Part shown: positions 8,456-25,689 of the stretch, piece after piece
How positions within the stretch are numbered: the first letter of the stretch is position 1
Layout: each line of letters opens with the position of its first letter
Source of the DNA: a virus
Lineage: Duplodnaviria > Caudoviricetes
IMG/VR virus record: IMGVR_UViG_3300010052_000200
Location: 1-25,689 of that record
Strand: one strand, 5' to 3'
DNA: 25,689 nt
Translations under genes and position numbers: made by a program
Notes under the pieces: generated by a model
Told to the model about the DNA's origin: nothing
The model's input: the letters and a program-made list of their open reading frames with translations, nothing else
The model's database searches: none

Positions 8456-9172
8456 CTAATCGTCCACCGGCTCTAGATCGGACACCTTGAGCGGAAACTC
8501 CTGCTCGGCCTTGCCGAACAGTGGCAGCAACACCTTGGCAGCAAGCCCGTCGATAGCCGACACCCTCGCCTGCAGGCCTGCAAGCGATCCTTCAACCACC
8601 TGCACCATGTCACCCACCTTGAACTCCCGGCCCGCCTGCATGCCCATATGCTCAAACTCGACAGGCGCCTCAAGCGTACCGTTCACCTTCACGAACTCAG
8701 CTGTCTTCTCGCCATCCATGCGCCAGGCCCGCTCGCCCAGCCCGACAACCGACACCACCATACTGATCGAGAACACCTGCTCCCACGGCGCCACCGCACC
8801 GATCAGCCGCTCGACCTTCTTTCCGCTCCTCAGCCTGACAACTACCCGCTCGCCACCTCGCAGCTGCGCCTCGCTGAACCCGATCAGCACGTAGCGCGGC
8901 GCGATCACGTAGCTCCGCTTGGTCTTTCGCTTCACGAACCGATTGGCCCGCCGATACTCGGTGTGCATCGGCACGATGGCGACGAAGCCGCGCCGCTCGA
9001 GAATTGCCTCAACCGCGAACTCAGTGCCGGCCCTCACCTCGATCGCATACCAGTGGAGCGCCGCCAGCAGCCGCTTCGGCCACACCAGGGCCGCCCGCGC
9101 CGCGCTCAACCGCTTCGGTCCCGGCCGATCCTCGGTCCGCTCTACCCCATCCTTGTCCCGCCAAGTCGCCAT
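8456..9172 (-). CDS. NusG/RfaH-family transcription antiterminator (NGN + KOW)
   Basis: NGN motifs WYAIEVRAGTE and APRYVLIGF, KOW motif FKVGDMVQVVEGSLAG...KVLLPLFG. Start reassigned to ATG 9172. Sits where lambda has Q. Confidence 0.88.
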   Translation of the reverse strand: MATWRDKDGVERTEDRPGPKRLSAARAALVWPKRLLAALHWYAIEVRAGTEFAVEAILERRGFVAIVPMHTEYRRANRFVKRKTKRSYVIAPRYVLIGFSEAQLRGGERVVVRLRSGKKVERLIGAVAPWEQVFSISMVVSVVGLGERAWRMDGEKTAEFVKVNGTLEAPVEFEHMGMQAGREFKVGDMVQVVEGSLAGLQARVSAIDGLAAKVLLPLFGKAEQEFPLKVSDLEPVDD

Positions 9173-9185
9173 GAGCCGCCCTCTT

Positions 9186-9491
9186 AGACAGTCACAGACA
9201 GTCCCTTCGGACTGTCTCTCAATGAAAAATGCCGTAGGCATAGTGACTTAGAGAGGGTGCAGAGGGTGAAGACAGTTGCCCCGTGATACATGGCAAAAGA
9301 TCGACCCGCCTCAGCACCCAAATCAAACCACCCCTGACCCCCTCTACGTATACGCGAGAGAGAAGGGTCAGAGTGTCTATGAATGTCTGCAAGACATTGA
9401 TTTTGCTGTTGTAATAGCGCGCAGACAGTCGCATTCGACTGTCACTAACTCTCTTGACTGTCTATCGCCGCGCGGCAGCGCGGAGACAGTC
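9186..9491. repeat. Iteron-like AGACAGTC direct and inverted repeat cluster; putative replication origin
   Basis: AGACAGTC at 9186, 9196, 9423, 9484. Inverted GACTGTCT/A at 9210, 9437, 9456. Variant AGACAGTT at 9270. AT-rich stretch at about 9391-9416. Confidence 0.65.
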
Positions 9492-9589: not shown

Positions 9590-11404
9590 CTAAATGGTTG
9601 GCGGCTGCCAGCCCGGATCGCCGGCGGGGGTGCGGGGTGGCGGCGACGACGGCACGCCCTCGGTGAACTTGCTCGCTGTGGGCACCAGCCGCACGTCGAG
9701 ATAGACGACGTAGTTGCCGCGCTTCTTCTTCAGCCCACGTTCGCCGAGGCTGTCGCCGAACGATCGCTGCGATGCCGGACGCAAGGCGTTCACCTCGCAC
9801 CACTCGGTGTAAGCCTTGTAGATGGCGCCGGCCTTCACCTGGCCACCTTCCTCGGGCTCCAACGCCACCTCGAGGAACACGCCGACATTGTCGCGCTCCT
9901 CGCGATAGTCCTGCCAGAACTCATGCACGTTGGGCGGGATGAACGGATCGAGCCCGTGCTTGAGGTAGAGCATCATCCCTTCGATCAGCCAGTTCAGGAT
10001 GCCCGATCGCTCGGCATCGAGCCGCTCGGCCAGCAGCGACGGCGCCACCCGCTCCTCTTCCGGGATCGTCACGCCCCACAGCACCGGAAGCAGGCGCCGC
10101 CAGATGCCATAGTCGGCGCCGTTGATCGCCGGCTTGGAGTTGCCAGACAGCACCGGCACGAACACCGGCATGAACTCGAAGAAGTCCTTGTTGAGGAAGC
10201 GCGCGAGGATCTTCGTGCCGCCCGTCAGCGCCTTCACCAGCTCCTCGCGCAGCGGCATGTGCTTGGGCAGCTCCTCGATCGTCACCAGGCGCGTGTTGTG
10301 CAGACGGGCGATATCGGGGTTGGCCTGCTGCCCCTGCCGCTGCCCTTCGCCTGTCACCGTTTCCGGCGACGCGATCGAGCGGTAGCTGCCGGCGAGGCGG
10401 CCGATCAGTTCGATGAAGGCGGACTTGCCGTTGGCGCCGCGCCCATAGTGGTAGACCATGCGCTGCGCATCATTGCCGGCGATCAGCAGCGCATAGGCGG
10501 TGATGACCTGCAGGTAGGTGCGATCGCGCTCAGCCGGCATCACCTTCTTGAGGAACGTGTCGAGAAAGTAGGGGCAGGTCGCATCCGGGTCATAATCGAC
10601 CTCGGCCAGCTTGGTCACCAGGTGATTGCGATCGTGCTCCAGCCGCTCCACCTCGCCCATCCACCGCTCGGCGCCTTCCGGCCGTTCCGGGTCGAGCACG
10701 CGCTTGAAGCGCAGCGTGGCGTTGCGGCAGTTGAACAGCATCGGGTCGGCGTCGAGCCGCTCGATCGGCAGAGACTTGAGGCTCTGGGCCTGCTGCAGCA
10801 TCGCCGAGGTCTTGCCGGCATTGCCTGACGTGACCGCCCAGTTCTTGCGCTTCGACCGTTTCTGGCTAAGGGACTTCCGAACATCGACAGCCTTGGCCGC
10901 GAGCAACCTGTCCGCGGCGGTCCAATCCTCTTCCTTCTTATCATCGACGAGCCGCTGCACCATCCGCAGCACCGTGGCTTGCCCATCGGTGGGGACGATC
11001 TCGAACGCCTCGATCTTGATCTTGTCGACGATCTGCTGCGCCAGCCAGCGCACGTCGAGGTCGGCCTCATCGCGCTGCCAATGCGTATCGCGCCACAGCA
11101 ACCAGCCGAGTCCGGTGACGTAGCAGAGCCCGTGCCCGAACCAGGCGATCAGCCGCCGACCGTTGTCGCGATCGTTCTGGTCGAGCATGGCGCAGAAGCG
11201 CGCGATCTTGCGCTCGTCCTCGCTGAGCCCGGCCGGCGCATCCATCTGCTCAAGATCGATGACAGGCTCGTCGTCACCATCGACACCGTCGTCTGCCGGC
11301 TCCTCAGGCTCGGCCGAGGCCTCGCCTTCCGGAAAGAATGGTTCGCCGTCCACGACCTCGCCTTGGGCCATGGCGTCGCGTACCCGCGATGATCCCCTGG
11401 TCAT
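9590..11404 (-). CDS. P4-family / D5-like SF3 replicative helicase (phage/plasmid primase-helicase)
   Basis: D5_N-like NDRDNGRRL...WQRD, Walker A GRGANGKS, Walker B LVTIEE, KALTGG, GNSKP, DYGIWRRL, and a C-terminal winged-helix-like region. Confidence 0.92.
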   Translation of the reverse strand: MTRGSSRVRDAMAQGEVVDGEPFFPEGEASAEPEEPADDGVDGDDEPVIDLEQMDAPAGLSEDERKIARFCAMLDQNDRDNGRRLIAWFGHGLCYVTGLGWLLWRDTHWQRDEADLDVRWLAQQIVDKIKIEAFEIVPTDGQATVLRMVQRLVDDKKEEDWTAADRLLAAKAVDVRKSLSQKRSKRKNWAVTSGNAGKTSAMLQQAQSLKSLPIERLDADPMLFNCRNATLRFKRVLDPERPEGAERWMGEVERLEHDRNHLVTKLAEVDYDPDATCPYFLDTFLKKVMPAERDRTYLQVITAYALLIAGNDAQRMVYHYGRGANGKSAFIELIGRLAGSYRSIASPETVTGEGQRQGQQANPDIARLHNTRLVTIEELPKHMPLREELVKALTGGTKILARFLNKDFFEFMPVFVPVLSGNSKPAINGADYGIWRRLLPVLWGVTIPEEERVAPSLLAERLDAERSGILNWLIEGMMLYLKHGLDPFIPPNVHEFWQDYREERDNVGVFLEVALEPEEGGQVKAGAIYKAYTEWCEVNALRPASQRSFGDSLGERGLKKKRGNYVVYLDVRLVPTASKFTEGVPSSPPPRTPAGDPGWQPPTI

Positions 11405-12657
11405 GTTACCCCTAAAGTCCCGCCGCCAACATCAGAGGGCGAGGCAGCCCCCAGCTCATCCATCGCCACATCGTTCATGTCGGAAAACCCGCCACCCGGC
11501 CGCACCAGCACGGTGCGTAGGGGCGGCAACTCCGGCCGCTCGCGCCGCGCCATCTCGCGCAGCCAGCGGTTGCGCAGGAGCCCGCGCGTGCACTTCTCGA
11601 TCGCATGCTTTTGCGGCTCGTCGTTCTCAGCGAGGAACACCAGCTCCTCACACCAGTCGGGCACCAGGAAGCAGCCCAGGTCGGTCATGTCCGGCCGGTC
11701 TTCATGCCGCTTCGCAAACTGGTAAAGCGCCTTGCCGCTCATGTTGCCGAGGTCGCCAGCCGCCCAATAGGCCGTGTCCGGCTCGAAGGCGTGGCAGAAC
11801 GGCGTCGCCGTCGTCTCGATGCCCTCGCCCATCACGATGCGGCGCGGGTTTTTCGGCGTGTAGATCGGGATCATCCCGCCCTGCTTCGTGCCGCGCATCT
11901 TCTTGGCCGGCAGCGGCTTGTCGGTGCGATGGTCGGGGTCGAACAGCAGCACCTTGCCTTTCGGCTGGTCGAGGTCGATCCACGTCTGATGCACGCCACC
12001 GAAGCGGCCGAGCGGGTCCTCGGGCTGCACCAGTCGCGCCGGCAGCAGGATCGGCAGCATCATGGCCGGGCCGGCGTGCAACACCTCGTATCCGCCCTGC
12101 CCGTTGCTTTCGACGTACGGCAGGTCGAGCCGTTCGCGGACAGGCAGCTCGTCGACGACCTCGATTGCCGGGTGGTCAAACAGGTCGAGTGCCCTCAGTC
12201 GCAGATACGCCGCAACAGGGCCATCCTTGGCAGGCATGCGACCGGACCGGTAGATGGTCAGCCCCGCATCGCGCGCCTTGCGCCGATAGCGATCCTCTTC
12301 CTCATCATCCCGGCGCTTCTTCTCCTCCAGCGCCCGAGCATTGGCGGCAGCACGATCGGGGTCGATAGGCGCCTCGGCCGAGCGTCCGGTAATGCGCTCA
12401 CAGGCGACGGTGAAGCTCACGTCGTCGGTCGCCATCACCAGGGCGATCACGCCCTCGCCAGAGATCCCGCAGCCGCGGCAGTTGAACAGGTTCTTCACCG
12501 TGTTGATCGAGAAGCGATCGGTACCGCCGCATTTCGGGCACGGCCCGGCGCGGTCGCGTCCCTTGCTCAGCGTCCAACGCTTCTGGATGGCCCAGCCATC
12601 GCAGGTCACGCGGAGCGCTTCGTCACGCAGGGCGGCGAGGTGGTCGGGGAGGCTCAT
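11401..12657 (-). CDS. Zinc-finger / TOPRIM DNA primase
   Basis: P4-alpha-type zinc finger GPCPKCGGTDRF...CRGC, YLRLR, GVHQTW, TOPRIM motif MGEGIET...AEND, C-terminal DMND. Confidence 0.88.
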   Translation of the reverse strand: MSLPDHLAALRDEALRVTCDGWAIQKRWTLSKGRDRAGPCPKCGGTDRFSINTVKNLFNCRGCGISGEGVIALVMATDDVSFTVACERITGRSAEAPIDPDRAAANARALEEKKRRDDEEEDRYRRKARDAGLTIYRSGRMPAKDGPVAAYLRLRALDLFDHPAIEVVDELPVRERLDLPYVESNGQGGYEVLHAGPAMMLPILLPARLVQPEDPLGRFGGVHQTWIDLDQPKGKVLLFDPDHRTDKPLPAKKMRGTKQGGMIPIYTPKNPRRIVMGEGIETTATPFCHAFEPDTAYWAAGDLGNMSGKALYQFAKRHEDRPDMTDLGCFLVPDWCEELVFLAENDEPQKHAIEKCTRGLLRNRWLREMARRERPELPPLRTVLVRPGGGFSDMNDVAMDELGAASPSDVGGGTLGVT

Positions 12658-13165: not shown

Positions 13166-13380
13166 GGCACCTGCTCCAAAAACGTTGCGGCCAGCTTCAC
13201 CGCCGAGGTGAGCCCTTCGGCCAGCGTCTGATTGTTGAGGGGTGGGGTGAGCCGGCGCCGCGTCGCATCGTCGACAAGCGCCTGCTCGAAGTCGGGCAGC
13301 AGCGAGCCCGGCTCGAACGCCAGGTCGCGCAACATCCGCTCGAAGCGCCGACGATGGAACGCGGTGACGGACGGGCTCAT
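13162..13380 (-). CDS. Hypothetical phage protein (72 aa)
   Basis: ATGA overlaps at both ends; codon usage matches neighbouring genes. Confidence 0.7.
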   Translation of the reverse strand: MSPSVTAFHRRRFERMLRDLAFEPGSLLPDFEQALVDDATRRRLTPPLNNQTLAEGLTSAVKLAATFLEQVP

Positions 13381-13955
13381 GCGCGTTCAAGTCTCTCGGG
13401 GAAACCGAACCGCTCGCTGGTGAGGTTGAACTTCACGATCACCGCGCCGGCCAGGTCGATCTGGAATTCGTAAGCGAGTGCGTCAGTCGCCCGGAATACT
13501 TGACGCGCCCAGAAAGCACGCCCCTCTACATCATCACCGTCATCGACGCGCGCTATGGACTTAAAGAGCCAGTTGCCTCGCTCGCTCGGCGTCATAGCCG
13601 CTTCAGGATAGTTGGCCGCTGCATGGGAGGTGTCAGCACGGATGCCCGCAAAGTCGAATTCCTCGAACAGGCGGCGTTCCGGGAAGTCCCAGCCGAGGCA
13701 AATGTCGAGGTAAATCACTACATCCGCGAGTTCGCCTCCCAGATCATCGACGAGCGCGAGGTGCGACTTGAGGTTGCCGGCAAGGCCGTCGCGATCCCTG
13801 TTCAACTTTTTGACGACGTTCAGCGCCTCGCCGGCCTCACCGCCAAGGGCGAGGAACCAGTCGGAAAATGACCACGGCGGCGCTCCCTCAGGATGCCAAC
13901 GACGGCAGCGCGGAAGGTTCTGATCCCGAAGATGCGAAAATGTTAGGTTAGCCAT
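13377..13955 (-). CDS. MazG-like all-alpha nucleotide pyrophosphohydrolase
   Basis: LGGEAGEALNVVKK...GELADVVIYL metal-binding motif and C-terminal IDLAGAVIVKFN. GGAGG RBS. Confidence 0.85.
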   Translation of the reverse strand: MANLTFSHLRDQNLPRCRRWHPEGAPPWSFSDWFLALGGEAGEALNVVKKLNRDRDGLAGNLKSHLALVDDLGGELADVVIYLDICLGWDFPERRLFEEFDFAGIRADTSHAAANYPEAAMTPSERGNWLFKSIARVDDGDDVEGRAFWARQVFRATDALAYEFQIDLAGAVIVKFNLTSERFGFPERLERA

Positions 13956-14124
13956 GGTGCGCCTCCAGCGCTTGGGTAGGTTGGGAGCGCTCCAGCGCCA
14001 GGTCGAGCAGCCACGCCATCTCGCCGGCCGTGATGCGGGCGAGCGTCACGGCCTCGGATGGCTTCGTGCGAAGCTCCTCCAGCCGAGCGCGATCGATGGG
14101 TGTGGGGACAGCTCGTTTGCCCAT
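13948..14124 (-). CDS. Hypothetical phage protein (58 aa, not in ORF track)
   Basis: MGKRAVPTPIDRARLEELRTKPSEAVTLARITAGEMAWLLDLALERSQPTQALEAHHG. TGATG overlap upstream and 8-nt overlap with the MazG-like gene; fills the gap exactly. Confidence 0.7.
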   Translation of the reverse strand: MGKRAVPTPIDRARLEELRTKPSEAVTLARITAGEMAWLLDLALERSQPTQALEAHHG

Positions 14125-14465
14125 CAGCCGTGCCCCTGCACGGGCAGGTCGGCGATCAGCGTCTTGCCGAACGCGTCGAGTTCTTTGTGGATCATGTCCA
14201 TGCGCCGAAGGTCGGCCGCGGTCGGGTCACGATCCTCATCGAGGATGTTCATGATGCTGGCGAACAGGTGGTTGGCGCCGGCCATGAAGGCCTTGCGCAG
14301 GTCCGCCACCTGCTCTGGCGTAGCATCCTCTGGAAGCCAGCCCTTGCGCAGGCCAATCCACCCGGCCTCGACCAGCTTGCCGTCGTCGGCCAGCTTGCGT
14401 CCGAGGTTGGTCATCAGCCGCTCGTAGTCGGTCATCGACTCCCGCTTGCGTTTCGCCTCACCCAT
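14124..14465 (-). CDS. Hypothetical phage protein (113 aa)
   Basis: MGEAKRKR N-terminus, GGAGG RBS, 8-nt overlap with the methyltransferase stop codon. Confidence 0.8.
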   Translation of the reverse strand: MGEAKRKRESMTDYERLMTNLGRKLADDGKLVEAGWIGLRKGWLPEDATPEQVADLRKAFMAGANHLFASIMNILDEDRDPTAADLRRMDMIHKELDAFGKTLIADLPVQGHG

Positions 14466-17400
14466 TTGCGGCTGCCTCCTCGATCTCCATCAGTCCGAAC
14501 AGGTCCGGCGTCGCCAGCTCCTCGGCCATGCGTGCCACGTGGGCGCAGCCGTCGCGGAAGTAGGCCGGGTTGAGTTCCACCGCCCGGCCCTTGCGCCGGT
14601 GCTTCAGTGCCCGGAAGGGCACGCTCATCACGCCGCCGAACGGGTCGAACACCACCTCGCCGGGCTCCGAATACTGGTTGATGGCGCGGTCGATGATGTC
14701 GAACTGCAGCGGGCAGAGGTGCAACTCGCGCCCCTGCTGCGCCTGCAGCGTGTTCATCGACAGCATGCGGGCGACATCGGTCCACACGGCCGGGTGCTCG
14801 CTATGCGGCGGCAGCAGCATGAAGTCGCTGGGCAGGCCGGACGCCGCCTCGAGGCCTTCGGCCAGGTAGACGTGGTGCTCGAAATCGTACACCGCGCCCA
14901 GGTCGCAGCGCTTCCACAGCTTGTAGATCACGTTGGCGTCGAGCGCCCGTAGCTCCTCCGGCGTCAGCAGCCTGTTGCCGCTCGACTTGCGGAAGCCGTG
15001 CGCATCGAGCTGCCACCGGCCGCGGGAGTAGCCCTCCGGGTTGGTCCACCCCTCACCCTCGAAGGCCTTCTTGTCTTTCTTCACCGGCTTGTCGGCATAG
15101 CCGTTCGAGTTGTCCGAAGGCGGCTTGCGGAAGATCAGGCAATACTCCGGCAGCCCGTTGCCCATGCGCGAGCCGTCCTTGCATTGCTCGGTCCAGCCCA
15201 GCCGATAGGTCTGGTTGTTCTCCCGCACGACATCGGTGGTCACCGTGATACGGCTGAGGAAGGCCCAGCCATGCTGCCGGAACCGCGCCACGCAGTCGTC
15301 GGAGAACGGCGACACGGTCTGGAAGCCGAGTCCGGTCAACCCGCCCGGCACGATCCGGTCCTTCACGTGGATCATCGCGATACGGCCCGGTGCCAGCACC
15401 CTGAGCAGCTGTGGAATGAGGAAATCCATCTGCGCCCAGAAGTGCTTGTCGTCGTCGGTGTGGCCGAAGTCGGCGTAGTTCGGCGAATACTCGTACTGGG
15501 TCGAGAACGGGATCGAGGTGACGATCAGGTCGACCGAGTTGTCTCCCATGCGCCCAACCTCGTCGACACAGTCGTTGTTCACGAGCGTAAACATCGGCTC
15601 TCCATCTCTCACGGGAGCAGCCATGCCGACTGGACGCGCAGCGCCCCAGAATTCGGGGTCGCTGGTAACAACAACCCGCTCGACTCCCATGCCGCGCTGA
15701 AGCGACGATGCCATGGCCACGGCCGAGAGACCGTACTGCCGGATGATTGCTGTCATGATGTCCCGCTGCTCGTCGTGGCGCCGCCACTTGGCTTCAATGC
15801 TGTCGCGGATGGGCCGCTCGGCCTCGGTGTAGATGAAGTGGATTTCGACCGGCCGCTTCTGCCCGAACCGATAGATCCTGTGGCAGGCCTGGATCAGGTC
15901 TTGAAACTTGTGGCCGATACCGGCGAACACCATGCGAGCGCACTGCTGCAGGTTCACACCGGCGCCGTACATCTGGGCTTTGCTGACGAATGCCGTACGT
16001 TGGCGCTGCTTCCAGCGATGCATCAGCTCTTCGCGGATATCGACATCCTGGCTGCCGGTCAGCGATGCGTAACTGACACCCGCGGCGTCTAGCCCGCGCT
16101 CTAGGGCACGTTGCTCATCGTTGAGGTTGCACCAGATGACGACCTGGTCAGGTACTCCGCTGCGATGATCAGCAGTCGCGGATCGTCCCGCATCAACCCC
16201 AGCGCCGCGTTGCACCGATGGCAGAGCAGCCCCCGCACCCTGCCCGTCGAGTGGTCGTGATCCACGTACAGCTTCCGCCGACCCCTCAGCGGCTCGCGAG
16301 CCCGGCAGATCGCGCAGCAGTGCTCCTGCGCTTCCGCCATCTGCTGGTACTGCTCGGGCGTTACCCCCATAAGGCGCAGCTTCCGCACCCAGGAGGTCTC
16401 GATCGCCCGCGGCTTGTTGTTCCGGTACCAATCCGCGCTTCGAGCGACGAGCTTTTCGCGGTTCGCCTCCCGATAGTTCGCGTCCATCGCCGCGGCCTTC
16501 TCCGGGTTCAGTTCCCGCCAACGCTTCGACCGCGCCCGGTAGACCTCCGGCTTCGCCTGGTAGTTTCGCTTGCCCCGCTCCTTCTGCTTCGCCAGCAGCG
16601 TCTCGCGGTTCTTCAGGTAGTAGGCCCGCTGATAGGCTTTGCGCTTCTCGTCCATCGCGGACGATCTCCAATACCTTGCCGACTCGGACGCTGAGACTAT
16701 CGCGCTTCTCGCGTGCCGCATCGCCGAGCGAGGCCGCTGCATTCTTCAGCAACCGCCCCTGCCCGCTCTTCTCGGTGCCGGCCGTCAGGTGGTTCGACGG
16801 AAGCTCGTGCCAGTGAATGGTGAGCGCCGGGAGCGAATAGCCGTCGTCCGGATAGCCGAGGTCAGATGGCTTCTCGACGAACAGCCCCCAGCTCGCCACC
16901 CAAAGCCAGAACTCTTGCGCTTTGTGGGGATGGATGGTGAGCGTGTCGGCCTTCTCGCTGTTCCGCTTGAAGAAGCGGGTCTTCGCCTGCCCGACATCCA
17001 TCACCTCGAGGAACGCCGCGTAGGCGAGCAGCTCGATATATTCGTTCGGCGACGGCGTGGCCGTGGCGACGAACTTGAATGCCATGCCGCCAAACAGCCG
17101 CATGAACTCCCGGAAGGTCTTGGTGCCGCCGAAGCCGCGCAGGCACGAGGCCTCGTCGAGGGATGCGGCGCCGAAAGCGTTCGGGTCGAGCTTCCCGTCG
17201 CGGATCGATTCATAGTTGGCGAGGTAGTGTCCCGCATCCTTCACCTCGACGGTGCGGCGGATGAACTTCAGGTCGATCGCGCCGTCGGGGTGCGTCGAGA
17301 GCCAGGCGCGCAATTCAGCCCGCTGCGCCTCGGTGATGTCAGGATGCTCGCCGGTCGAGAGCGTCCGCGCGTCCGCCATCAGCTCGAGCCGGACGCCGAG

Positions 17401-17655
17401 TGGCGCCACCTGCAGCACGGCCTGGCCGAGGTGCAGCCGCACCAGGCGCAGCAGCTCCAGCTGCATGAAGCTCTTGCCAAGCCCAAACGCGGCAAAGATC
17501 GCCCGCTTACCGCCGTGACAGGCCCACTGCACGATCCGCTTCTGGTGCGGCTTCAGCAGCGGATTGATGTCCTCTACGGCGACGTCGAACCCACCATCGA
17601 CCGCGATCGGCACCTTGGCGTCGAGAAACTCCCGATAGGTTAGCGGCGTGTTCAT
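14458..17655 (-). CDS. SNF2-like SF2 helicase fused to a beta-class N4C/N6A DNA methyltransferase, with a ~168-aa insertion
   Basis: Helicase motifs AAFGLGKS, LDEAS, TAT, GVNLQ, QACHRIYRFGQ. Methyltransferase motif IV TSIPF precedes HLCPLQ and motif I DPFGG (beta order). Confidence 0.92.
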   Translation of the reverse strand: MNTPLTYREFLDAKVPIAVDGGFDVAVEDINPLLKPHQKRIVQWACHGGKRAIFAAFGLGKSFMQLELLRLVRLHLGQAVLQVAPLGVRLELMADARTLSTGEHPDITEAQRAELRAWLSTHPDGAIDLKFIRRTVEVKDAGHYLANYESIRDGKLDPNAFGAASLDEASCLRGFGGTKTFREFMRLFGGMAFKFVATATPSPNEYIELLAYAAFLEVMDVGQAKTRFFKRNSEKADTLTIHPHKAQEFWLWVASWGLFVEKPSDLGYPDDGYSLPALTIHWHELPSNHLTAGTEKSGQGRLLKNAAASLGDAAREKRDSLSVRVGKVLEIVRDGREAQSLSAGLLPEEPRDAAGEAEGAGQAKLPGEAGGLPGAVEALAGTEPGEGRGDGRELSGGEPRKARRSKRGLVPEQQAAGDRDLLGAEAAPYGGNARAVPADGGSAGALLRDLPGSRAAEGSAEAVRGSRPLDGQGAGAALPSVQRGAGVDAGRSATADHRSGVPDQVVIWCNLNDEQRALERGLDAAGVSYASLTGSQDVDIREELMHRWKQRQRTAFVSKAQMYGAGVNLQQCARMVFAGIGHKFQDLIQACHRIYRFGQKRPVEIHFIYTEAERPIRDSIEAKWRRHDEQRDIMTAIIRQYGLSAVAMASSLQRGMGVERVVVTSDPEFWGAARPVGMAAPVRDGEPMFTLVNNDCVDEVGRMGDNSVDLIVTSIPFSTQYEYSPNYADFGHTDDDKHFWAQMDFLIPQLLRVLAPGRIAMIHVKDRIVPGGLTGLGFQTVSPFSDDCVARFRQHGWAFLSRITVTTDVVRENNQTYRLGWTEQCKDGSRMGNGLPEYCLIFRKPPSDNSNGYADKPVKKDKKAFEGEGWTNPEGYSRGRWQLDAHGFRKSSGNRLLTPEELRALDANVIYKLWKRCDLGAVYDFEHHVYLAEGLEAASGLPSDFMLLPPHSEHPAVWTDVARMLSMNTLQAQQGRELHLCPLQFDIIDRAINQYSEPGEVVFDPFGGVMSVPFRALKHRRKGRAVELNPAYFRDGCAHVARMAEELATPDLFGLMEIEEAAANG
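16101..16655 (-). CDS. Endonuclease VII-family (His-Me finger) putative homing endonuclease nested in the helicase-methyltransferase gene
   Basis: Own GGAGA RBS and ATG at 16655. Basic helical N-terminus, then CAIC...[30 protein letters not shown]. GC-rich third positions in this frame. 184 aa. Confidence 0.9.
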   Translation of the reverse strand: [184 protein letters not shown]

Positions 17656-19748
17656 GCCGCCGCCCCGTGGATCGGATTGCGGGCCGGATCTGTTAGCCCA
17701 AGCCGGTGGGTCCAGGTCTGGACGGTGCCGAGCGGGTGGCCCAAGTCGATCGCCATCTGCCGCACCGGCACCTTGGCCGCGAGGCCGGCAGCCAGCGCGT
17801 CACGAGCGGTCGCCTGGTGCAGCTTGCCTTTCGGTTCGGTCAGCGCCCCAAGCGCACTGCGGTAAGCGGCGAGGAGGTCAGTGTCGCCGAACGTAAATGG
17901 CTCGTTCGCCGCTGGCTGCAGCCGCGCCGTCACCGCAGCCTCACTCGGATCTGCCGCGTCATCGACGAGACGCCACTTGCCGTTGTTCTCGACCACGTAG
18001 GCGCCAGTAACCGGGAAGTCCGCCACCGGCTTCAGATGCTCTGAGGTGGTGAGAAGCAGGATGTGCGTGGCGAGATGCACCGGCTTGGGGAAGCCGCGCT
18101 TGCTGCCGCTCTTCCAGGCGTTGACCTTGTCGCGGCAATCCTTCTCGGTCGCGGACCAGCTGTTGAGGGCCGTGCCCGCGCTGTCCCACTTGGGCAGCAT
18201 CGGCCACCGGCCATCGACAAGCTCCATGCCGCGCTTCACCCGGCCGATCTGTTCATGCTTCTCGGTGGGGTCGATCCGGCAGACGAATTCCGGATAGAAC
18301 ATCCCGACCTTGTCGTCGGACGTGGTTTTTTTGCCCTCGGTGTGACGCTCGACCAGTTGCGCCAGCGCCAGTCGCGCCGACTCTTCAACCGATCGGCCGA
18401 GGTCTTCCTTGAGGCCAACGCGCACCTCGACCCAGCCGCCACGCGGGAACTTCAGGTCAAACCTGGTAGCCATGAAGCGGAAGCTCGGTCCGTAACCCCA
18501 GTCGTCGAACTTGTAGCGCACGAGCGCCGGCAACCCGTCGACCTCGATCTCGAACAGCCCGGACTGGCCCCACATCGGCACAGTGCCGGGCGCCACGCTT
18601 GCTGCGTTGACCAGCGCTTTGGGTCGCTCTGCGATCAACATGCTGCTGCGATCCTTGCCGTTGGCGTGCCAGCGCAGCGCCTCGAGTAGCAGTTTGGCCT
18701 CGCCGGCCCGATCCTCGTGCCCAGCGCGCATCGCCTGGTCGAACAGACTGTGCGCCTGCTTGTAGTCGGCGATCAGCAGGTCAAGATCATCCGACATCCC
18801 TGTCGTCATGACCGCGAGCAATGAGTTGCCGTAGAGGTCGCCCTCACCCACCTCGGTGCGCTTGCGCGCCACGTCGAAGGCCAGCCGGACCTCACGCTTG
18901 AGGTTGAGCACCCCATCGCGATCGGCGAGCAGCTTGTGCTCTCTTGCCAGCGCGTCGAGCGTGGCCGCGTCGATGTCCTTGCCCTTCTCGCCGATCTCGC
19001 AGATCGCCGCCGCGAACATGACGATCATGCTCGGGTCCATCGCCTTCACGACCGGCCCGCTCTCAGCGAGCGGCGGCGGGTCCTGCAGCTTCTGGCGGGC
19101 AGCGGCCGAGGCCTCGCCCCGCGGCTTGCTGGCCACCTCGCGCTGCTCGTCTTCGTCGTGGTCGACCAGCTGCTCGGCGAGATAGGCCGGCACCCGCCCG
19201 TCGTCGACGGCTGCGATCAGTTCCGGCTCGGCCTCGGCCACGATCTTCGCCGCCGAGTTGACCTGCCTTTCGGAGACGCCGAACTTCGTCGCCGCCTCGG
19301 CCTGCGTGATCTCCCGCAATTTTGCGTACCGCGCCGCCGACATCGCCCGCTGGCTGGCACTGTCATGTCGCCGCTGCTCGTTCAGCGACCAGACGAAGTC
19401 GAGCGCCTCCGACTCTGTGCCGGCGAACTCGGTGAAAAGCTCCGGCCGGTCGCGCCAGCGCTCATCCTCCGGCTCGAACACGCCGTTGTCGACCAGCACC
19501 AGGTAGCGGTTACGCCCGTCGAGGATCGCGTCTTCGAATACCGTGATCTTGTTCTTGAGACCGGTCTGGACGATGTCGTCCTCGAACGCCTCGCGCTCAT
19601 CGCCGGCCAGCATCCGGAAGATGCCGGCGAACCGGTGCGGCTGCAGGCCGATCTCCGGCCAGTTCAACGGCGGTTGACTTGGCCCGGAGCCAGCATCAGT
19701 GCCGAAGCCGAACTCGGACTGCGGCATGTCGTTTTGTGCGTCGCTCAT
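17652..19748 (-). CDS. ParB/Spo0J-like N-terminal domain + HTH multidomain phage protein
   Basis: HRFAGIFRML...GLKNKI...ILDGRNRY...NEQRRHDSASQRAM, HTH TQAEAATKFGVSERQV, central APGTVPMWGQSGLFEIEVDG region, second HTH-like motif at the C-terminus. Confidence 0.82.
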   Translation of the reverse strand: MSDAQNDMPQSEFGFGTDAGSGPSQPPLNWPEIGLQPHRFAGIFRMLAGDEREAFEDDIVQTGLKNKITVFEDAILDGRNRYLVLVDNGVFEPEDERWRDRPELFTEFAGTESEALDFVWSLNEQRRHDSASQRAMSAARYAKLREITQAEAATKFGVSERQVNSAAKIVAEAEPELIAAVDDGRVPAYLAEQLVDHDEDEQREVASKPRGEASAAARQKLQDPPPLAESGPVVKAMDPSMIVMFAAAICEIGEKGKDIDAATLDALAREHKLLADRDGVLNLKREVRLAFDVARKRTEVGEGDLYGNSLLAVMTTGMSDDLDLLIADYKQAHSLFDQAMRAGHEDRAGEAKLLLEALRWHANGKDRSSMLIAERPKALVNAASVAPGTVPMWGQSGLFEIEVDGLPALVRYKFDDWGYGPSFRFMATRFDLKFPRGGWVEVRVGLKEDLGRSVEESARLALAQLVERHTEGKKTTSDDKVGMFYPEFVCRIDPTEKHEQIGRVKRGMELVDGRWPMLPKWDSAGTALNSWSATEKDCRDKVNAWKSGSKRGFPKPVHLATHILLLTTSEHLKPVADFPVTGAYVVENNGKWRLVDDAADPSEAAVTARLQPAANEPFTFGDTDLLAAYRSALGALTEPKGKLHQATARDALAAGLAAKVPVRQMAIDLGHPLGTVQTWTHRLGLTDPARNPIHGAAA

Positions 19749-19963: not shown

Positions 19964-20120
19964 TTTTCTTGGCCCGCGCCCTGGCTTGCTTCCACGACCG
20001 GCGCAACACATGGAATGTCCGGAGGGCGAACAGTCCGGTTCCCGTCATCACGAGGGCCAGCATCACGATCCCGCCGACGCGGAACAGCAGCGTATCGCTC
20101 GCGAGAAGCCAGTCAACCAT
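19956..20120 (-). CDS. Small single-pass membrane protein (54 aa, not in ORF track)
   Basis: MVDWLLASDTLLFRVGGIVMLALVMTGTGLFALRTFHVLRRSWKQARARAKKNG: hydrophobic helix and basic tail, 8-nt overlaps at both ends, GGAG RBS. Confidence 0.7.
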   Translation of the reverse strand: MVDWLLASDTLLFRVGGIVMLALVMTGTGLFALRTFHVLRRSWKQARARAKKNG

Positions 20121-20628
20121 CGGCCCGCTCCACCACTACGGCCGCCTTGACCGCCTCGGCGAGGCCCGCCAGTTCGAGCATCAGCTCGCGGATGTCGTTA
20201 AGGATCGGCGCTGCCTCGTCGGGCGTGATCCTGCCATCATTGGCGAGCGCGCCGAACACGCCCGACATCACCTCGCCGAACTCGTGCGCGCTCCGCCCCG
20301 ATCGCTCGGTGACGGCGCTGTTGCCCGCCCCGTGCGGCAGCTGCACCAGCAGGCAGTTGGCCAGCTCGGCAAGCTTCCGGGTGACGATCGGCTGGCCGCA
20401 TTCGGCCTCGAGATCGGCGATCACATCGGCCGGCGCGAAGCGCTCGTGATGTTCATCGCCCACGCTGCCGTAGCCACTGAGCACCTGTTGGCTGACGCGC
20501 GTCGCCTTGGCGGCTTCGTTGCCACCACCGACCGCGGTCACCAGCTGGCGGGTCGCGGCTTTCAGCGCGACATAGTCGGACGCGGGGAGTTGCCGGGCGC
20601 GATTGGAGACCTGGACCGGGATCGTCAT
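20113..20628 (-). CDS. CII-like phage regulatory protein
   Basis: Start MTIPVQ (ATG 20628). LKAATRQLVTAVGG...RVSQQVLSGYG HTH, FAPADVIADLEAECGQPIVT, ALANDGRITPDEA. Located downstream of cro. Confidence 0.75.
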   Translation of the reverse strand: MTIPVQVSNRARQLPASDYVALKAATRQLVTAVGGGNEAAKATRVSQQVLSGYGSVGDEHHERFAPADVIADLEAECGQPIVTRKLAELANCLLVQLPHGAGNSAVTERSGRSAHEFGEVMSGVFGALANDGRITPDEAAPILNDIRELMLELAGLAEAVKAAVVVERADG

Positions 20629-21077
20629 GGCGTAAGCTCCGCCGCACTTACGCCATGACGAGAGGATGCCGCACGGTCTACAGGGAGTGAGACCCGTGCG
20701 GCCCCGGCCACGACGCGCGGGAGGGAAGCGCGCGCCGAAGGGGAAATGGGATGGAAGACAAGCCGCTGCCGAGCCACGCGACCTTCTACGTCGCGCATGC
20801 GGTCGCCAACGATGTGCTGATAAAGCTCGCCTACAGCTTGGCGGCAAACCTGACAGTGACCGCGCCGGAGGATCGAGAGCACGGTGGCGCAGAAGTCTTG
20901 GGCGACCTGCTCGCGAGCTTTATGCTGTCGGCCGACTTCAAGCCGGGGGAGATTGCCGACACGCTGCCTGAGCTTGGGCCCTACGATGCCGACGAAGCAG
21001 AAAGCATCGCTATGGACATTGTCGGCGAAGCGCTGACGCTGATCCGGTCGAGGCTTGTGGACTGATGCGCGCGTCAT
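20625..21077 (-). CDS. Translationally coupled ORF antisense to 20751..21065 (hypothetical)
   Basis: ATGA overlaps at both ends (21074-21077 and 20625-20628). The protein reads like an antisense shadow. Confidence 0.4.
   Translation of the reverse strand: MTRASVHKPRPDQRQRFADNVHSDAFCFVGIVGPKLRQRVGNLPRLEVGRQHKAREQVAQDFCATVLSILRRGHCQVCRQAVGELYQHIVGDRMRDVEGRVARQRLVFHPISPSARASLPRVVAGAARVSLPVDRAASSRHGVSAAELTP
20751..21065 (+). CDS. Acidic helical hypothetical protein on the counter strand (104 aa)
   Basis: Purine-rich RBS (GAAGGGGAAATGGG) and protein-like composition. Confidence 0.6.
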   Translation: MEDKPLPSHATFYVAHAVANDVLIKLAYSLAANLTVTAPEDREHGGAEVLGDLLASFMLSADFKPGEIADTLPELGPYDADEAESIAMDIVGEALTLIRSRLVD

Positions 21078-21531: not shown

Positions 21532-21773
21532 TCCGCCACCGCCACTGCTGCGTTCGACTTCTCCCAAGCGAGACGGACCTCATAGAGGTCCTGCGCGGTC
21601 ACCTGACCGGCGGTCGCGCTTTCGATTGTTTCGATCATCACTGCGTTGGGCATCCGCTCGCCCCGCTCGAGCCGCTGAAGCGTTCGAGCGGGATTGCTGC
21701 CGGAAAGCCCAAGACGCGCGGCCGCTTCAGCAAGCGTGACAGACTGTGATTTGCGCCAATCGGAGAGGTTCAT
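21528..21773 (-). CDS. cro: Cro-like XRE HTH regulator
   Basis: MNLSDWRKSQSVTLAEAAARLG...TLQRLERGERMP...GQVTAQDL; divergent from the repressor. Confidence 0.88.
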   Translation of the reverse strand: MNLSDWRKSQSVTLAEAAARLGLSGSNPARTLQRLERGERMPNAVMIETIESATAGQVTAQDLYEVRLAWEKSNAAVAVAE

Positions 21774-21781
21774 GCAAAGAA

Positions 21782-21858
21782 GTAGCCATATCGGCTACAT
21801 TCCTGTCAACATGAAAAGTAGCCGTATCGGCTACAACATGGGTAGCCGTATCGGCTAC
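21782..21858. promoter_or_regulatory. OR-like operator region: three 17-bp GTAGCC-N5-GGCTAC operators with divergent promoters
   Basis: GTAGCCATATCGGCTAC 21782-21798, GTAGCCGTATCGGCTAC 21818-21834 and 21842-21858. TTGACA on the minus strand at 21809-21804. Confidence 0.92.
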
Positions 21859-21867
21859 ATTCCGGGA

Positions 21868-22500
21868 ATGGGCAATCGTATCAAACAGTTGATGAGGGAT
21901 CGACGCCTGTCGCGAGACGACGTGGCGGATGCTCTCGACATCCATCCGGTAACGGTCAGCAAGCTGATCAGTGGCAAAATGCAGCTGACGGTCGACTATC
22001 TTGATCGGTTCGCTAAGCTGTTTGCAGTCGAACCGTCTGAGATAATCGCCCCGAAGCCGTCGACCCGCATCATCAAGGTGCGCGGCCCGCTACAGGCCGG
22101 CGCCTATCAAGCGTCGACCGAGTGGGACGAAGACGACTGGTACGATGTAGCCATTCCCGACGATCCGGAGTTGCGCTCCGTGCCTCTCTACGCCGCAGAG
22201 ACCCGCGGCCCGTCGATGAACAAGCGCTATCCTGAGCGTACGGTCTTGGTGTTTGCGCACATAGACGACCTTCCAGAACCACTGCAGGTAGGGAAGCGAT
22301 ACGTCGTCGAAAGGGAGCGCGCCGATGGTCTGCGGGAGGCGACAGTCAAGCAGCTGTGGCAAGACGAAACCGGCCGTCTGTGGCTTCTGCCCGAGTCCAA
22401 CGATCCTCGGTGGCAAGAGCCCATCTCGATCGAAGGCGGAGCAGATGACACGGTCCGCATTCTCGGTCGCATCCGGTATTCGGTGCAACGCGAAGATTGA
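21868..22500 (+). CDS. cI: CI-like repressor (XRE HTH + S24 autopeptidase)
   Basis: Start reassigned to MGNRIKQL (ATG 21868). HTH SRDDVADALDIHPVTVSKL, cleavage-site-like QAG, catalytic GPSM (Ser) and ATVK (Lys). Confidence 0.92.
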   Translation: MGNRIKQLMRDRRLSRDDVADALDIHPVTVSKLISGKMQLTVDYLDRFAKLFAVEPSEIIAPKPSTRIIKVRGPLQAGAYQASTEWDEDDWYDVAIPDDPELRSVPLYAAETRGPSMNKRYPERTVLVFAHIDDLPEPLQVGKRYVVERERADGLREATVKQLWQDETGRLWLLPESNDPRWQEPISIEGGADDTVRILGRIRYSVQRED

Positions 22501-24080: not shown

Positions 24081-24311
24081 ATGACCGTGGCTGGAGAGGC
24101 GCCCATCACCCTGAGCCGGCTGGAGCGTGGCATGGACACGCTCTGCCGGATCATGGCCGACGAGGAGCCGGAATACGCTGAAAAGCTGATCCCGCTCTAT
24201 CGGCTGCTCGAAACCGAGATCGAGGCGCGCCGCGCCAGCCTCAGCACCATCGATGCCGCCAGGGCGCGCGCCCGCGACCTCAAACGCTCTTCTCATCGAA
24301 CGGCAGCGTGA
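24081..24311 (+). CDS. Small helical hypothetical protein (76 aa)
   Basis: Starts 3 nt after the previous stop codon; its 3' end overlaps the integrase 3' end convergently. Confidence 0.65.
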   Translation: MTVAGEAPITLSRLERGMDTLCRIMADEEPEYAEKLIPLYRLLETEIEARRASLSTIDAARARARDLKRSSHRTAA

Positions 24312-25653
24312 TCGCTGCGAGCGCCTTGCGCCGCAGCTCCAGCGAACCACCCGTCCCATATTCCGGCCGGTCAAGCGCATGCCCCATGATGATCTTGCGC
24401 AGCTCGGCGTCGACCTTCCCATCCTTCATCCGATCCTCGAAGCTGTGGCGCAGCGAGTAGAGCACGTGCCGCGGCGACGGCATTAGGCTCAGCTTCCGCA
24501 GCTGCTTGTTGACGAGGGCAGAGAGGCTGCTCGACTTGTCGCGATAGCGATCAAAGCCGTTCGGAAATTTCTTGAACACGGCAAGCGACACGCCGAGCAG
24601 CGGGATCATCCGCACCGCCGCGTTGGACTTCACCTCGCGCGGATCGTCCGGATCGTCCCGCGGCTCCACCAGCACGTGCGGCACCTTGTGTTTGAGCAAG
24701 ATATGGTTCGCCCTGAGGTTCACCACCTCGCTCGGCCGCATGCCGGTTTCCACCATGGCTAGGATGGCGCCGCGCGCCTCGTCGTTGAGGCTCGCCAGTG
24801 CGCCCTTGGCCAGGATCTTTTCCCGTATCCATTCGGTGGGGAACGGTGGCCGCTTCTGCCGGCGTTGCCGCTCGGTGAAGCTCAGGTCGTCGAACGGGTT
24901 CGGCCGATCGCGCTGCCCCAGGTGCCGCCAGTAATCGCGATAGAAGCTGCGCATGCTGGAGAGGTCGCGGTTGCCCGACGAGGGCGAGTGCGTCTGGCGG
25001 GCCCCGTCCTCGGTCGGCGCGATCCGCTTCCGCCACAGGTCGTAGACCTTGAGTGCATGTTCGCGCGCAATGTCGTCCATCGCGACCTCGCCGTTGAGGT
25101 CGCGGAAATTGTTGACCGCGCGGCGCATCACCTTGGTCCACTGCCGGCGCTGCTCCTCGCTCTTGCCGGCGATGATCGAAGGCGCGATCTCCTGCAGGTA
25201 GAACTCGAAGCCCTTCGTCAGCGTAACCCGCGGCGCCTCGATGAGGCCAAGCACCGCCCGGCTGGTCGCCCGCGGCGTCCGATCGTCGGCTACGGCTTCC
25301 AGCCGGTTCAGCAAGTCACCAAGCCGCGCCGGGCCGGCCGTCTCGATTGGCCGGTAGGCGAACCCCATCGCCTCGCTACGCTTGACCGCCTCATGGTGGC
25401 GCAGCTTCGCCAGCTCCATGCCATCGCCGTTGAGCAGCGACGCCCAGAACGCATCGTCCGCGGCCTCGAGCGCGTCGCGCTTCTGCCGCGCCAGCGCGCG
25501 GTCACGCGTTTTGAGAGTGACCCGCACATGCGGCGCTCGATTGTCAGCGTCGGCAACCGAGGCGGGTACCCGGCGCTTGTAATGGAATGTGCCACCGCGC
25601 TCGACGATGAAGCGGTCAGGATCAAGCTGTTCTGAGGACTTGCGTAGCGGCAT
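24280..25653 (-). CDS. int: Tyrosine recombinase / phage integrase with N-terminal arm-binding (DUF6538-like) domain
   Basis: N-terminal RGGTFHYKRRVP...VTLKTRD. Catalytic motifs TGMRPSE (R), VKS (K), YSLRH, MGH and EYG (Y). Start taken at MPLRK (25653); 25689 is an alternative. Confidence 0.93.
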   Translation of the reverse strand: MPLRKSSEQLDPDRFIVERGGTFHYKRRVPASVADADNRAPHVRVTLKTRDRALARQKRDALEAADDAFWASLLNGDGMELAKLRHHEAVKRSEAMGFAYRPIETAGPARLGDLLNRLEAVADDRTPRATSRAVLGLIEAPRVTLTKGFEFYLQEIAPSIIAGKSEEQRRQWTKVMRRAVNNFRDLNGEVAMDDIAREHALKVYDLWRKRIAPTEDGARQTHSPSSGNRDLSSMRSFYRDYWRHLGQRDRPNPFDDLSFTERQRRQKRPPFPTEWIREKILAKGALASLNDEARGAILAMVETGMRPSEVVNLRANHILLKHKVPHVLVEPRDDPDDPREVKSNAAVRMIPLLGVSLAVFKKFPNGFDRYRDKSSSLSALVNKQLRKLSLMPSPRHVLYSLRHSFEDRMKDGKVDAELRKIIMGHALDRPEYGTGGSLELRRKALAAITLPFDEKSV

Positions 25654-25664
25654 CGGCGGGGAGG

Positions 25665-25685
25665 TTGTGGCACCGTTTGTGGCAC
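25665..25685. repeat. TTGTGGCAC direct repeat, candidate integrase arm-type sites near att
   Basis: TTGTGGCAC at 25665-25673 and 25677-25685, just upstream of the integrase start. Confidence 0.5.
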
Positions 25686-25689
25686 ACAT

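Follow-up and report, generated by a model that had tools for sequence, protein, structure and literature searches.

The 25,689-base stretch of DNA analyzed here, referred to as the window, is the whole of the IMG/VR provirus record IMGVR_UViG_3300010052_000200 and has the gene layout of a temperate phage. On its minus strand, it contains a gene for a helicase-methyltransferase, in which a second gene, for a nuclease of the endonuclease VII family, is nested in another frame of the same strand. Here, the former is designated the host gene and its frame the host frame, whilst the frame of the nuclease, one base over, is designated host+1 (Table 1). P0001 is the protein encoded by the host gene, and other P and L numbers stand for homologous proteins and DNA loci, respectively. 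The host protein contains the Pfam domains Helicase_C (residues 502-598) and N6_N4_Mtase (residues 708-1033) and matches PHROG 16, "DNA helicase," with an E value of 4.5e-102. More than 7000 homologues were found in a protein search, mostly of ~870-880 residues and without the insert that contains the nuclease gene. Among the 120 best homologues listed, which come from Devosia, Rhizobium, Agrobacterium and others, the majority are 840-915 residues long and lack the segment, and an insert through which the host frame is read occupies the same site in at least 10 (P0004, P0105, P0110, P0113-P0116, P0118, P0119, and P0121).

An earlier, sequence-only reading of the window had described a low-complexity segment of ~168 residues at the start of the second RecA-like domain, rich in codons that are otherwise rare in the gene. 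This description holds. The segment has 169 codons, with boundaries accurate to a few codons, and the peptide that they encode in the host frame is rich in Gly, Ala, Arg, and Glu. The six codons GGA, CGA, GAA, CAA, CTA, and TCA make up 28.4% of the insert as compared with 2.8% of the rest of the gene. The guanine-plus-cytosine (GC) content at codon positions 1/2/3 is 0.88/0.65/0.45 when the insert is read in the host frame and 0.65/0.45/0.87 when it is read in the nuclease frame. As the latter values match those of the host gene outside the insert (0.65/0.43/0.86), the nuclease frame is the one with the normal coding bias. Alignment with homologues revealed insert-free alleles, as had been hoped for, and located the junctions to within a few codons. 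These alleles have, at this site, a variable linker of ~10 residues between a helix ending in (M/L)E(I/L)V and the strand DQ(V/I)(V/I)(I/L)WCDLNDEQ, which opens the second RecA-like lobe. The insertion site is, hence, the linker between RecA1 and RecA2. In an AlphaFold model of the whole protein, based on a 64-sequence alignment and with a mean predicted local distance difference test score (pLDDT) of 70.6, residues 346-499 form a coil with a pLDDT of ~26 (all below 50), which sits between helix 321-345 and strand 505-509 of the well-modelled lobes. The insert peptide is predicted from this model to be an unstructured loop that joins the two lobes.

The nested protein matches Pfam family PF02945 (Endonuclease_7) over residues 92-170 (E 6.5e-25; 87.3 bits at a cut-off of 23.6) and PHROG endonuclease VII families with E values down to 3e-33. 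A profile of the nested proteins also matches the solved structures of Hpy99I (3fc3; E 9e-14) and T4 endonuclease VII (1e7d; E 3e-12). Residues C114, C117, D132, H133, H135, C145, C148, and N149 are invariant across 14 nested homologues; by analogy with T4 endonuclease VII, they presumably represent the four zinc-binding Cys residues and the catalytic set Asp/His/His/Asn. Thus, the intact nuclease of the endonuclease VII type that had been read from the letters is, by its sequence, a member of this family, and its activity is predicted. Its N-terminal region of 90 residues is rich in Lys, Arg, Glu, and Tyr and has no assigned fold. At the other end, the conserved C-terminal motif EYL adjoins the DQ of the host protein, and the final ~15 residues are host sequence in the +1 frame. 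The stop codon lies 52 nucleotides past the start of the C-terminal host match (query from V506), close to the ~50 nucleotides noted before. The third frame of the same strand contains six stops in the window insert. A search of the genome contigs with the nuclease protein alone as the query found no relative.

The nested copies are 31-55% identical in protein and their synonymous sites are saturated; therefore, identity by codon position was used in place of the ratio of non-synonymous to synonymous substitution rates. In the 91 pairs of the 14 nested copies, nucleotide identity at nuclease codon positions 1/2/3 is 0.54/0.56/0.45, and the two frames differ in amino-acid identity, at 39.5% for that of the nuclease and 26.3% for that of the host. 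Together with the invariant catalytic and zinc residues, these identities show that conservation tracks the nuclease frame. This pattern indicates that the nuclease is under purifying selection, whilst the host-frame peptide is constrained only against stops.

Protein databases are biased to unbroken open reading frames (ORFs). Therefore, related inserts were sought in DNA fetched by a degenerate pattern for the downstream host motif WCDLNDEQ, which is blind to the frame of an insert. Species-representative genomes contributed 52 and viral contigs 120 of the 172 loci obtained in this motif scan, and N- and C-terminal host matches allowed 163 of the 172 to be evaluated. Both parts were in the same frame in all 163, and the linker was shorter than 20 residues in 140 of them. 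In 14 loci, 13 of them non-redundant (L079 equals L087), a gap of 420-549 nucleotides at the window's site is filled by an endonuclease VII match. Besides seven viral contigs, the sources of these loci, whose inserts comprise 140-183 codons, are genomes of Microbacterium, Dactylosporangium, Gellertiella, Azospirillum, Caulobacter, Variovorax, and Acidovorax. None of the 14 has a stop in the host frame; in all of them, the nuclease ORF is intact in host+1, and the third frame contains 3-16 stops. Insert length is a multiple of three in all 13 non-redundant relatives. In four additional partial loci of 624 bases each, there are no host-frame stops over the 98 codons available. Whether related inserts always have these two properties was a check proposed with the sequence-only reading, and they do in 13 of 13 non-redundant cases; inserts with host-frame stops, which had been listed as contrary evidence if common, are absent from the 14 loci.

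When the nuclease genes were shuffled synonymously, the host frame was open in 0-13.6% of the trials per locus, with a mean of 2.7%. For the window nuclease, the value was 2.4%, or 2.3% when codons were resampled from host codon usage. In the Caulobacter copy, which has a GC content of 43%, the host frame is open in reality and was open in 0 of 4000 shuffles. An empirical control was provided by 79 endonuclease VII relatives from viral contigs, 78 of them non-nested. The corresponding frame is open in one of these 78 and in none of the 27 with a GC content of at least 0.55 (1-11 stops each); the comparison of 0/27 free-standing GC-rich relatives with 13/13 nested ones gave 8e-11 in Fisher's exact test. 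As a host-frame stop can arise only where a nuclease codon ending in T stands before one that starts with AA, AG, or GA, avoidance is visible also at the codon level: in the pooled nested genes, a T-ending codon precedes such a codon in 0/229 cases as compared with 695/2092 for other codons (p 3e-38). Since chance openness is ~3% and none of the 27 GC-rich free-standing relatives is open in this frame, selection against stops is needed, and these statistics indicate that selection maintains the open host frame. The earlier suggestion that GC-rich third positions make the strategy feasible is correct insofar as they help, but they are insufficient alone. The argument for selection rests on the +1 register, because the synonymous shuffle is uninformative in host+2, where the probability of an open frame is 0.19-1.0. 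The sole locus of the control set that is nested in this other register (L218:3273-3833) again has the host's frame as the stop-free one.

Nesting in host+2 at the same linker was also observed for endonuclease VII in two Gordonia phages, i.e., in gp64 of Squiddly (L173:1997-3853, annotated "DNA helicase") and gp71 of Malisha. In these two and in L218, the host frame is rich in Ser and Thr and stop-free, and the remaining frame has six stops. Squiddly encodes its helicase and its methylase in two distinct genes. Other variants of the linker were found as well. An allele without the nuclease gene in a metagenome-assembled genome of the Myxococcales (L039) has a 23-residue linker ending in TGLSDQVVVWCDLNDEQ, like the 3' junction of insert-bearing alleles (SGLSDQ...); this linker may be the footprint of a lost insert or may represent a site type prone to invasion. 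Loci L058 and L063 have 62 extra in-frame residues at this linker and no nuclease frame, whilst 98 upstream codons in L165 form an open frame without a match to the nuclease or to the N-terminal part of the host protein.

With respect to expression of the nuclease, the sequence-only reading had pointed to a ribosome-binding site drawn from codons of the host gene, and a GGAG motif is indeed present there at a suitable position (Table 1). Such a motif is found 7-11 nucleotides before the start codon at the junction in 9 of the 14 non-redundant inserts, the window included, and its source is the conserved host codons (M/V/L)-E-I. Promoter- or terminator-like sites were sought between positions 15900 and 17800, and none were found. 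In the window, the nuclease frame has a TGA 30 codons upstream of the start. The start codon comes immediately after a stop in L011 and L132, where the nuclease frame thus opens exactly at that codon. Therefore, the nuclease must initiate by itself there and not via a frameshift from the helicase, and frameshifting that would join the helicase N-lobe to the nuclease was rejected as a general mechanism. These arrangements suggest that the nuclease is made from its own internal start.

The distribution of the insert was compared with a FastTree phylogeny of the host protein (108 rows), from which the insert and the first 100 downstream codons had been removed, and which did not include identical rows, short loci such as L030, or four loci that contain large inserts of another kind. 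The state of the insert, present in 13 rows, needs at least nine changes on this tree, at least six of which are forced by well-supported (starred) branches. The insert occurs in both major host clades, i.e., in 11 of 35 rows of the proteobacterial clade and in 2 of 73 rows of the actinobacterial clade. The nuclease tree rejects groupings of the host tree in the approximately unbiased test, with p-values of 0.018 for the window with L106, 0.0037 for L011 with L028, and 5.6e-46 for L034 with L079. The sequence downstream of the insert is a mosaic. With its nearest insert-free relatives, P0006, P0007, and P0013, the window protein shares 82-84% of residues in the N part and 87-89% in the C part but only 41-43% over residues 509-606, where its identity with distant insert-bearing alleles is 54-61%. 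Thus, the insert and ~100 foreign downstream codons likely arrived together in the window's lineage, and this mosaic flank has the pattern that would be expected from co-conversion of flanking DNA during homing. An insert-free helicase-methylase gene of Mycobacterium sp. 48b is followed, ~500 nucleotides downstream, by a free-standing relative of endonuclease VII (L024:5537-5851). This relative resembles the free-standing nucleases beside the Tiff81 and Sashimi genes, as these are presented in the available text of the report on them (PMC11855218), and the arrangement is a possible intermediate between the free-standing and nested forms.

The insert probably is a homing element that dispenses with splicing, as proposed by the sequence-only reading; this proposal is supported by the insert-free alleles, the open inserts of 3n length in 13/13 relatives, the lack of a splicing signal, the predicted loop, the sporadic spread, the conflicting trees, and the mosaic flank. 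Host ribosomes would read straight across the 169 codons, giving a full-length helicase-methylase of 1065 residues that tolerates a disordered loop. The nuclease would be translated from its own ATG, by using the GGAG present in the conserved host codons for Met/Leu-Glu-Ile, and would cut insert-free alleles in co-resident phages or prophages. Repair would then copy the nuclease gene together with flanking host sequence. Such cutting and copying would explain the scattered distribution, the conflict between the nuclease and host trees, and the ~100 foreign codons downstream. A specificity of the nested nuclease for homing is suggested by these patterns.

Several observations weigh against this explanation or limit it. 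Near-identical alleles that differ in the presence of the insert were sought and not found, the best pairs being 66-85% identical in nucleotides (the closest ~80-85%); consequently, neither the junction nor the cleavage site can be given exactly, and recent movement is unsupported. Nor is recent movement indicated by the state of the nested copies, as all of them are intact and none is decaying. The trees cannot separate gains from losses, the host tree was made with FastTree, and the groups tested were named after the nuclease alignment had been viewed. Furthermore, 5 of the 14 inserts have a weaker GGAG-like motif before the start, or none. Low confidence in AlphaFold does not prove disorder, and the 1065-residue protein is only presumed to function. 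Finally, relatives of endonuclease VII are common as free-standing phage genes, with 1031 phage records matched, and some of them are resolvases rather than homing enzymes.

Two of these considerations, an abundance of free-standing relatives and copies that are all intact, fit a nuclease that is no longer, or never was, engaged in homing, i.e., an endonuclease VII useful to the phage as a junction resolvase or packaging aid, for example, which became fixed within the helicase gene and has since been passed on by vertical descent and lost now and then. A resolvase role is established for T4 endonuclease VII, the catalytic residues are invariant in all 14 copies, which do not show the decay predicted by the life cycle of homing genes, and the insert is concentrated in one host clade. 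However, the nuclease gene is always found at one site of one gene, in hosts from two phyla, its tree conflicts with that of the host, and the window's lineage gained it together with a foreign flank. Moreover, F-CphI, a homing endonuclease with an Endo VII motif, shows that enzymes of this type can home (PMC6083498, available text). On balance, a non-homing role is unlikely. The opposite concern, that the overlap merely represents a chance open frame or an artefact of assembly or annotation, arises because long spurious ORFs are frequent in GC-rich genomes, and the opposite strand is also open here, between positions 16218 and 16694. It is refuted, to the point of being negligible, by the match to Pfam and by recurrence of the layout in isolates and viral contigs (13 independent loci) as well as in the annotated Gordonia phages Squiddly and Malisha.

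The remaining alternatives invoke removal or skipping of the insert. No intron or intein was detected there in the computational analyses, in agreement with the sequence-only reading, which had noted neither intein ends nor room for a ribozyme. An unrecognized self-splicing RNA is conceivable, since nuclease genes of phages that home are usually located in group I introns and divergent introns escape the models; alternatively, ribosomes might bypass the insert as in the hop in T4 gene 60. However, the search of positions 15600-17200 against Rfam gave no matches at E values up to 1, and there is no non-coding room for a ribozyme as the nuclease ORF begins at the 5' junction and runs beyond the 3' junction. 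In addition, neither process needs an insert of 3n length or an open host frame, yet 13/13 relatives have both, with a chance of ~3% for each; RNA removal and bypassing are thus very improbable. Protein splicing, on the other hand, would have the same requirements as translation through the insert, and a non-canonical mini-intein was therefore considered separately. The insert sizes are within the range of mini-inteins, and true inteins occur in this gene family. Nevertheless, the nuclease ORF and its coding bias extend throughout the insert, the first insert residue in the host frame varies (D, S, H, E, or G), there is no His-Asn end, and the residue that follows is Pro or Ser. The host-frame peptide, of which the low identity was mentioned above, had no match to any Pfam family at E values up to 10, including Hint and intein families, and AlphaFold shows coil across the insert and no Hint fold. 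There is, thus, hardly any reason to consider it an intein, and translation through the insert, combined with homing, remains the preferred explanation.

As to the inteins just referred to, apparently canonical ones are present at three other sites in the helicase-methylase family. That of L002 (Sediminivirga luteola) follows MDTGQA, has a middle part of the LAGLIDADG type and ends in THN|T; that of P0102 follows YSPNY; and the third is located in the C-terminal part of gp60 of phage Pacc40 (L174). The helicase-methylase gene is a hot spot for selfish inserts.

The arrangement had been assumed to be new as a kind, which it is not. It was published in 2025 for two phage genes, i.e., ShiLan gp65 and Pacc40 gp60 (PMC11855218). 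The ShiLan domain is an insertion in a mycobacteriophage methylase that hides an HNH gene in the third frame and has no host-frame stops and no intron or intein signature, according to the text consulted (Arsenault, Gosselin, Gogarten, Genes 2025, PMC11855218). It shares with the window an out-of-frame nuclease gene within an insertion in a phage DNA-modification gene, a stop-free host frame, the absence of an intron or intein signature, a host-frame peptide predicted to be a loop, and a disjunct distribution. However, the host gene and the site are different, the nuclease of ShiLan is an HNH enzyme with zinc fingers instead of one of the endonuclease VII family (PF02945), and the register is the third frame instead of host+1. 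Also, leaderless initiation is proposed for ShiLan, where no ribosome-binding site was seen, whereas the window has a GGAG from host codons. The main text of that paper does not mention endonuclease VII, Squiddly, or Gordonia, although such inserts might be listed in its supplements or repository.

The second, different hidden nuclease insertion in that paper, in the helicase-methylase Pacc40 gp60 (section 3.6 of PMC11855218), is closer to the window in its host gene. Gp60 (L174:3102-7127) can be aligned with both the helicase part and the methylase part of P0001 and is thus a homologue of the host protein, and it likewise contains an out-of-frame nuclease across which the host frame is read. 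However, its insert is positioned after RPSDI (~residue 266 of P0001) and not in the RecA1/RecA2 linker, which is insert-free in Pacc40. The Pacc40 nuclease, an AP2/HNH-like protein of 160 residues in the host+2 frame, is unrelated to that of the window, with which it gave no match. By these comparisons, the two inserts are separate elements of the same kind. Read-through inserts at the PSD(I/L) site were found not only in gp60 but also in L107:3-942 (plus strand), L130 (same sequence), and L097 and in the proteins P0017 and P0088. They comprise ~190 residues, rich in Ser, Thr, Ala, and Pro, in a stop-free host frame, whilst host+2 encodes the AP2/HNH-like nuclease (motif DRIDNDGNYEPGNCRWAT). 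As the host frame is open in 30-100% of synonymous shuffles, openness is cheap in that register.

Other known systems are related to parts of the arrangement. The nested nuclease has the catalytic and zinc-binding core in common with T4 endonuclease VII (1e7d/1en7) and Hpy99I (3fc3), and it differs from both, and from F-CphI, by its 90-residue N-terminal region. Among free-standing phage homing endonucleases, T4 SegF reportedly acts by intronless homing, and nrdA of Aeromonas phage Aeh1 is said to be split by mobE. Free-standing nucleases of this type, such as MobE (PMC2790892, available text), have neither an intron nor an intein, and they cleave the nuclease-free allele with co-conversion of the flanks, as the flank in the window suggests; however, their genes are located between genes or split the host gene, whereas the host gene in the window remains one ORF. 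Endonuclease VII-like homing nucleases encoded in a shifted frame, with the host frame open across them, are also described in the text available of a bioRxiv preprint from the group that reported ShiLan. These are located within true inteins with splicing domains, in genes for DNA polymerase, minor capsid protein, terminase, and thymidylate synthase, whereas the window insert has no splicing domain. Thus, the kind has been known since 2025, and this element, for which the support is unusually good, is new within it by its endonuclease VII nuclease, its position in the RecA1/RecA2 linker, its +1 register, its host-donated ribosome-binding site, and its occurrence in proteobacterial and actinobacterial prophages.

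The coordinates of the features discussed above and of the other genes of the provirus are listed in Table 1. Two ORFs directly 3' of the helicase-methylase gene, both on the minus strand (13377-13955, 192 residues, and 14124-14465, 113 residues), have no match to a Pfam or PHROG family. At the boundary between the helicase and the methylase, P0001 contains an extra segment of ~23 residues (PEFWGAARPVGMAAPVRDGEPMF; residues ~666-690, window ~15580-15660, minus strand), which is unique to the window protein, being absent from all 20 aligned homologues, and is of low confidence in the AlphaFold model.

Table 1. Positions of the nested nuclease gene, its host gene, and other genes in the window.
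Feature	Position	Strand	Description
Insert	16150..16656	minus	169 host codons, residues 334-502 (DGREAQ...HRSGVP); from alignment with insert-free alleles, codon statistics, and AlphaFold
Endonuclease VII-family gene	16101..16655	minus	ATG at 16655, stop ending at 16101; 184 amino acids plus stop; frame host+1
Catalytic and zinc-binding core	16146..16382	minus	Nuclease residues 92-170
Nuclease tail past conserved EYL motif	16101..16149	minus	Host sequence (DQVVIWCNLNDEQ) in the +1 frame to the first stop
GGAG, predicted Shine-Dalgarno site	16666..16669	minus	From host codons TTG GAG ATC (Leu-Glu-Ile), 10 nucleotides before the nuclease ATG
Foreign downstream flank	15838..16131	minus	Host residues 509-606, ~100 codons; likely co-conversion tract
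Helicase-methyltransferase (host gene)	14458-17655	minus	SF2/SNF2-like helicase fused to N4/N6 DNA methyltransferase; 1065 amino acids, single open frame
Integrase	24280-25689		
CI-like repressor	21694-22500		
CII-like protein	20113-20847		
ParB-like protein	17652-19748		
Primase	11401-12657		
D5-type primase/helicase	9590-11404		
NusG-like antiterminator	8456-9241		
Small and large terminase, portal, protease-capsid fusion			Also encoded in the window

Previously, it was held that genes for homing nucleases can persist in essential DNA only within an intron or intein or between genes. The report on ShiLan added a fourth solution, i.e., translation through the gene in another frame, on the basis of a few mycobacteriophages, and the text examined contains no statistical test of stop avoidance or other test of selection (PMC11855218). 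The endonuclease VII family adds an independent lineage of nucleases, with hosts in two phyla and a ribosome-binding site made of host codons. The signature of stop avoidance is a quantitative sign of a host frame that is actively kept, and it argues that ribosomes traverse the insert. The cultured Gordonia phages Squiddly and Malisha permit crosses. As exemplified by Squiddly gp64, annotated only as a DNA helicase, nested nucleases are hidden by gene callers, and unexplained low-complexity "linkers" in phage proteins merit checking in the other frames.

A broader picture can be sketched, although the chance that all of its parts hold together is somewhat below even. Read-through homing might be a widespread third way beside introns and inteins, and the helicase-methylase family might have experienced no fewer than three separate invasions across Actinomycetota and Pseudomonadota, with endonuclease VII entering in each of two registers and an AP2/HNH-type nuclease at another site. 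The strict rule against T before AA, AG, or GA in the +1 lineage could then serve as a genome-wide detector of such elements, and each invasion would bring a cassette of ~300 nucleotides that gives the second RecA lobe a new beginning.

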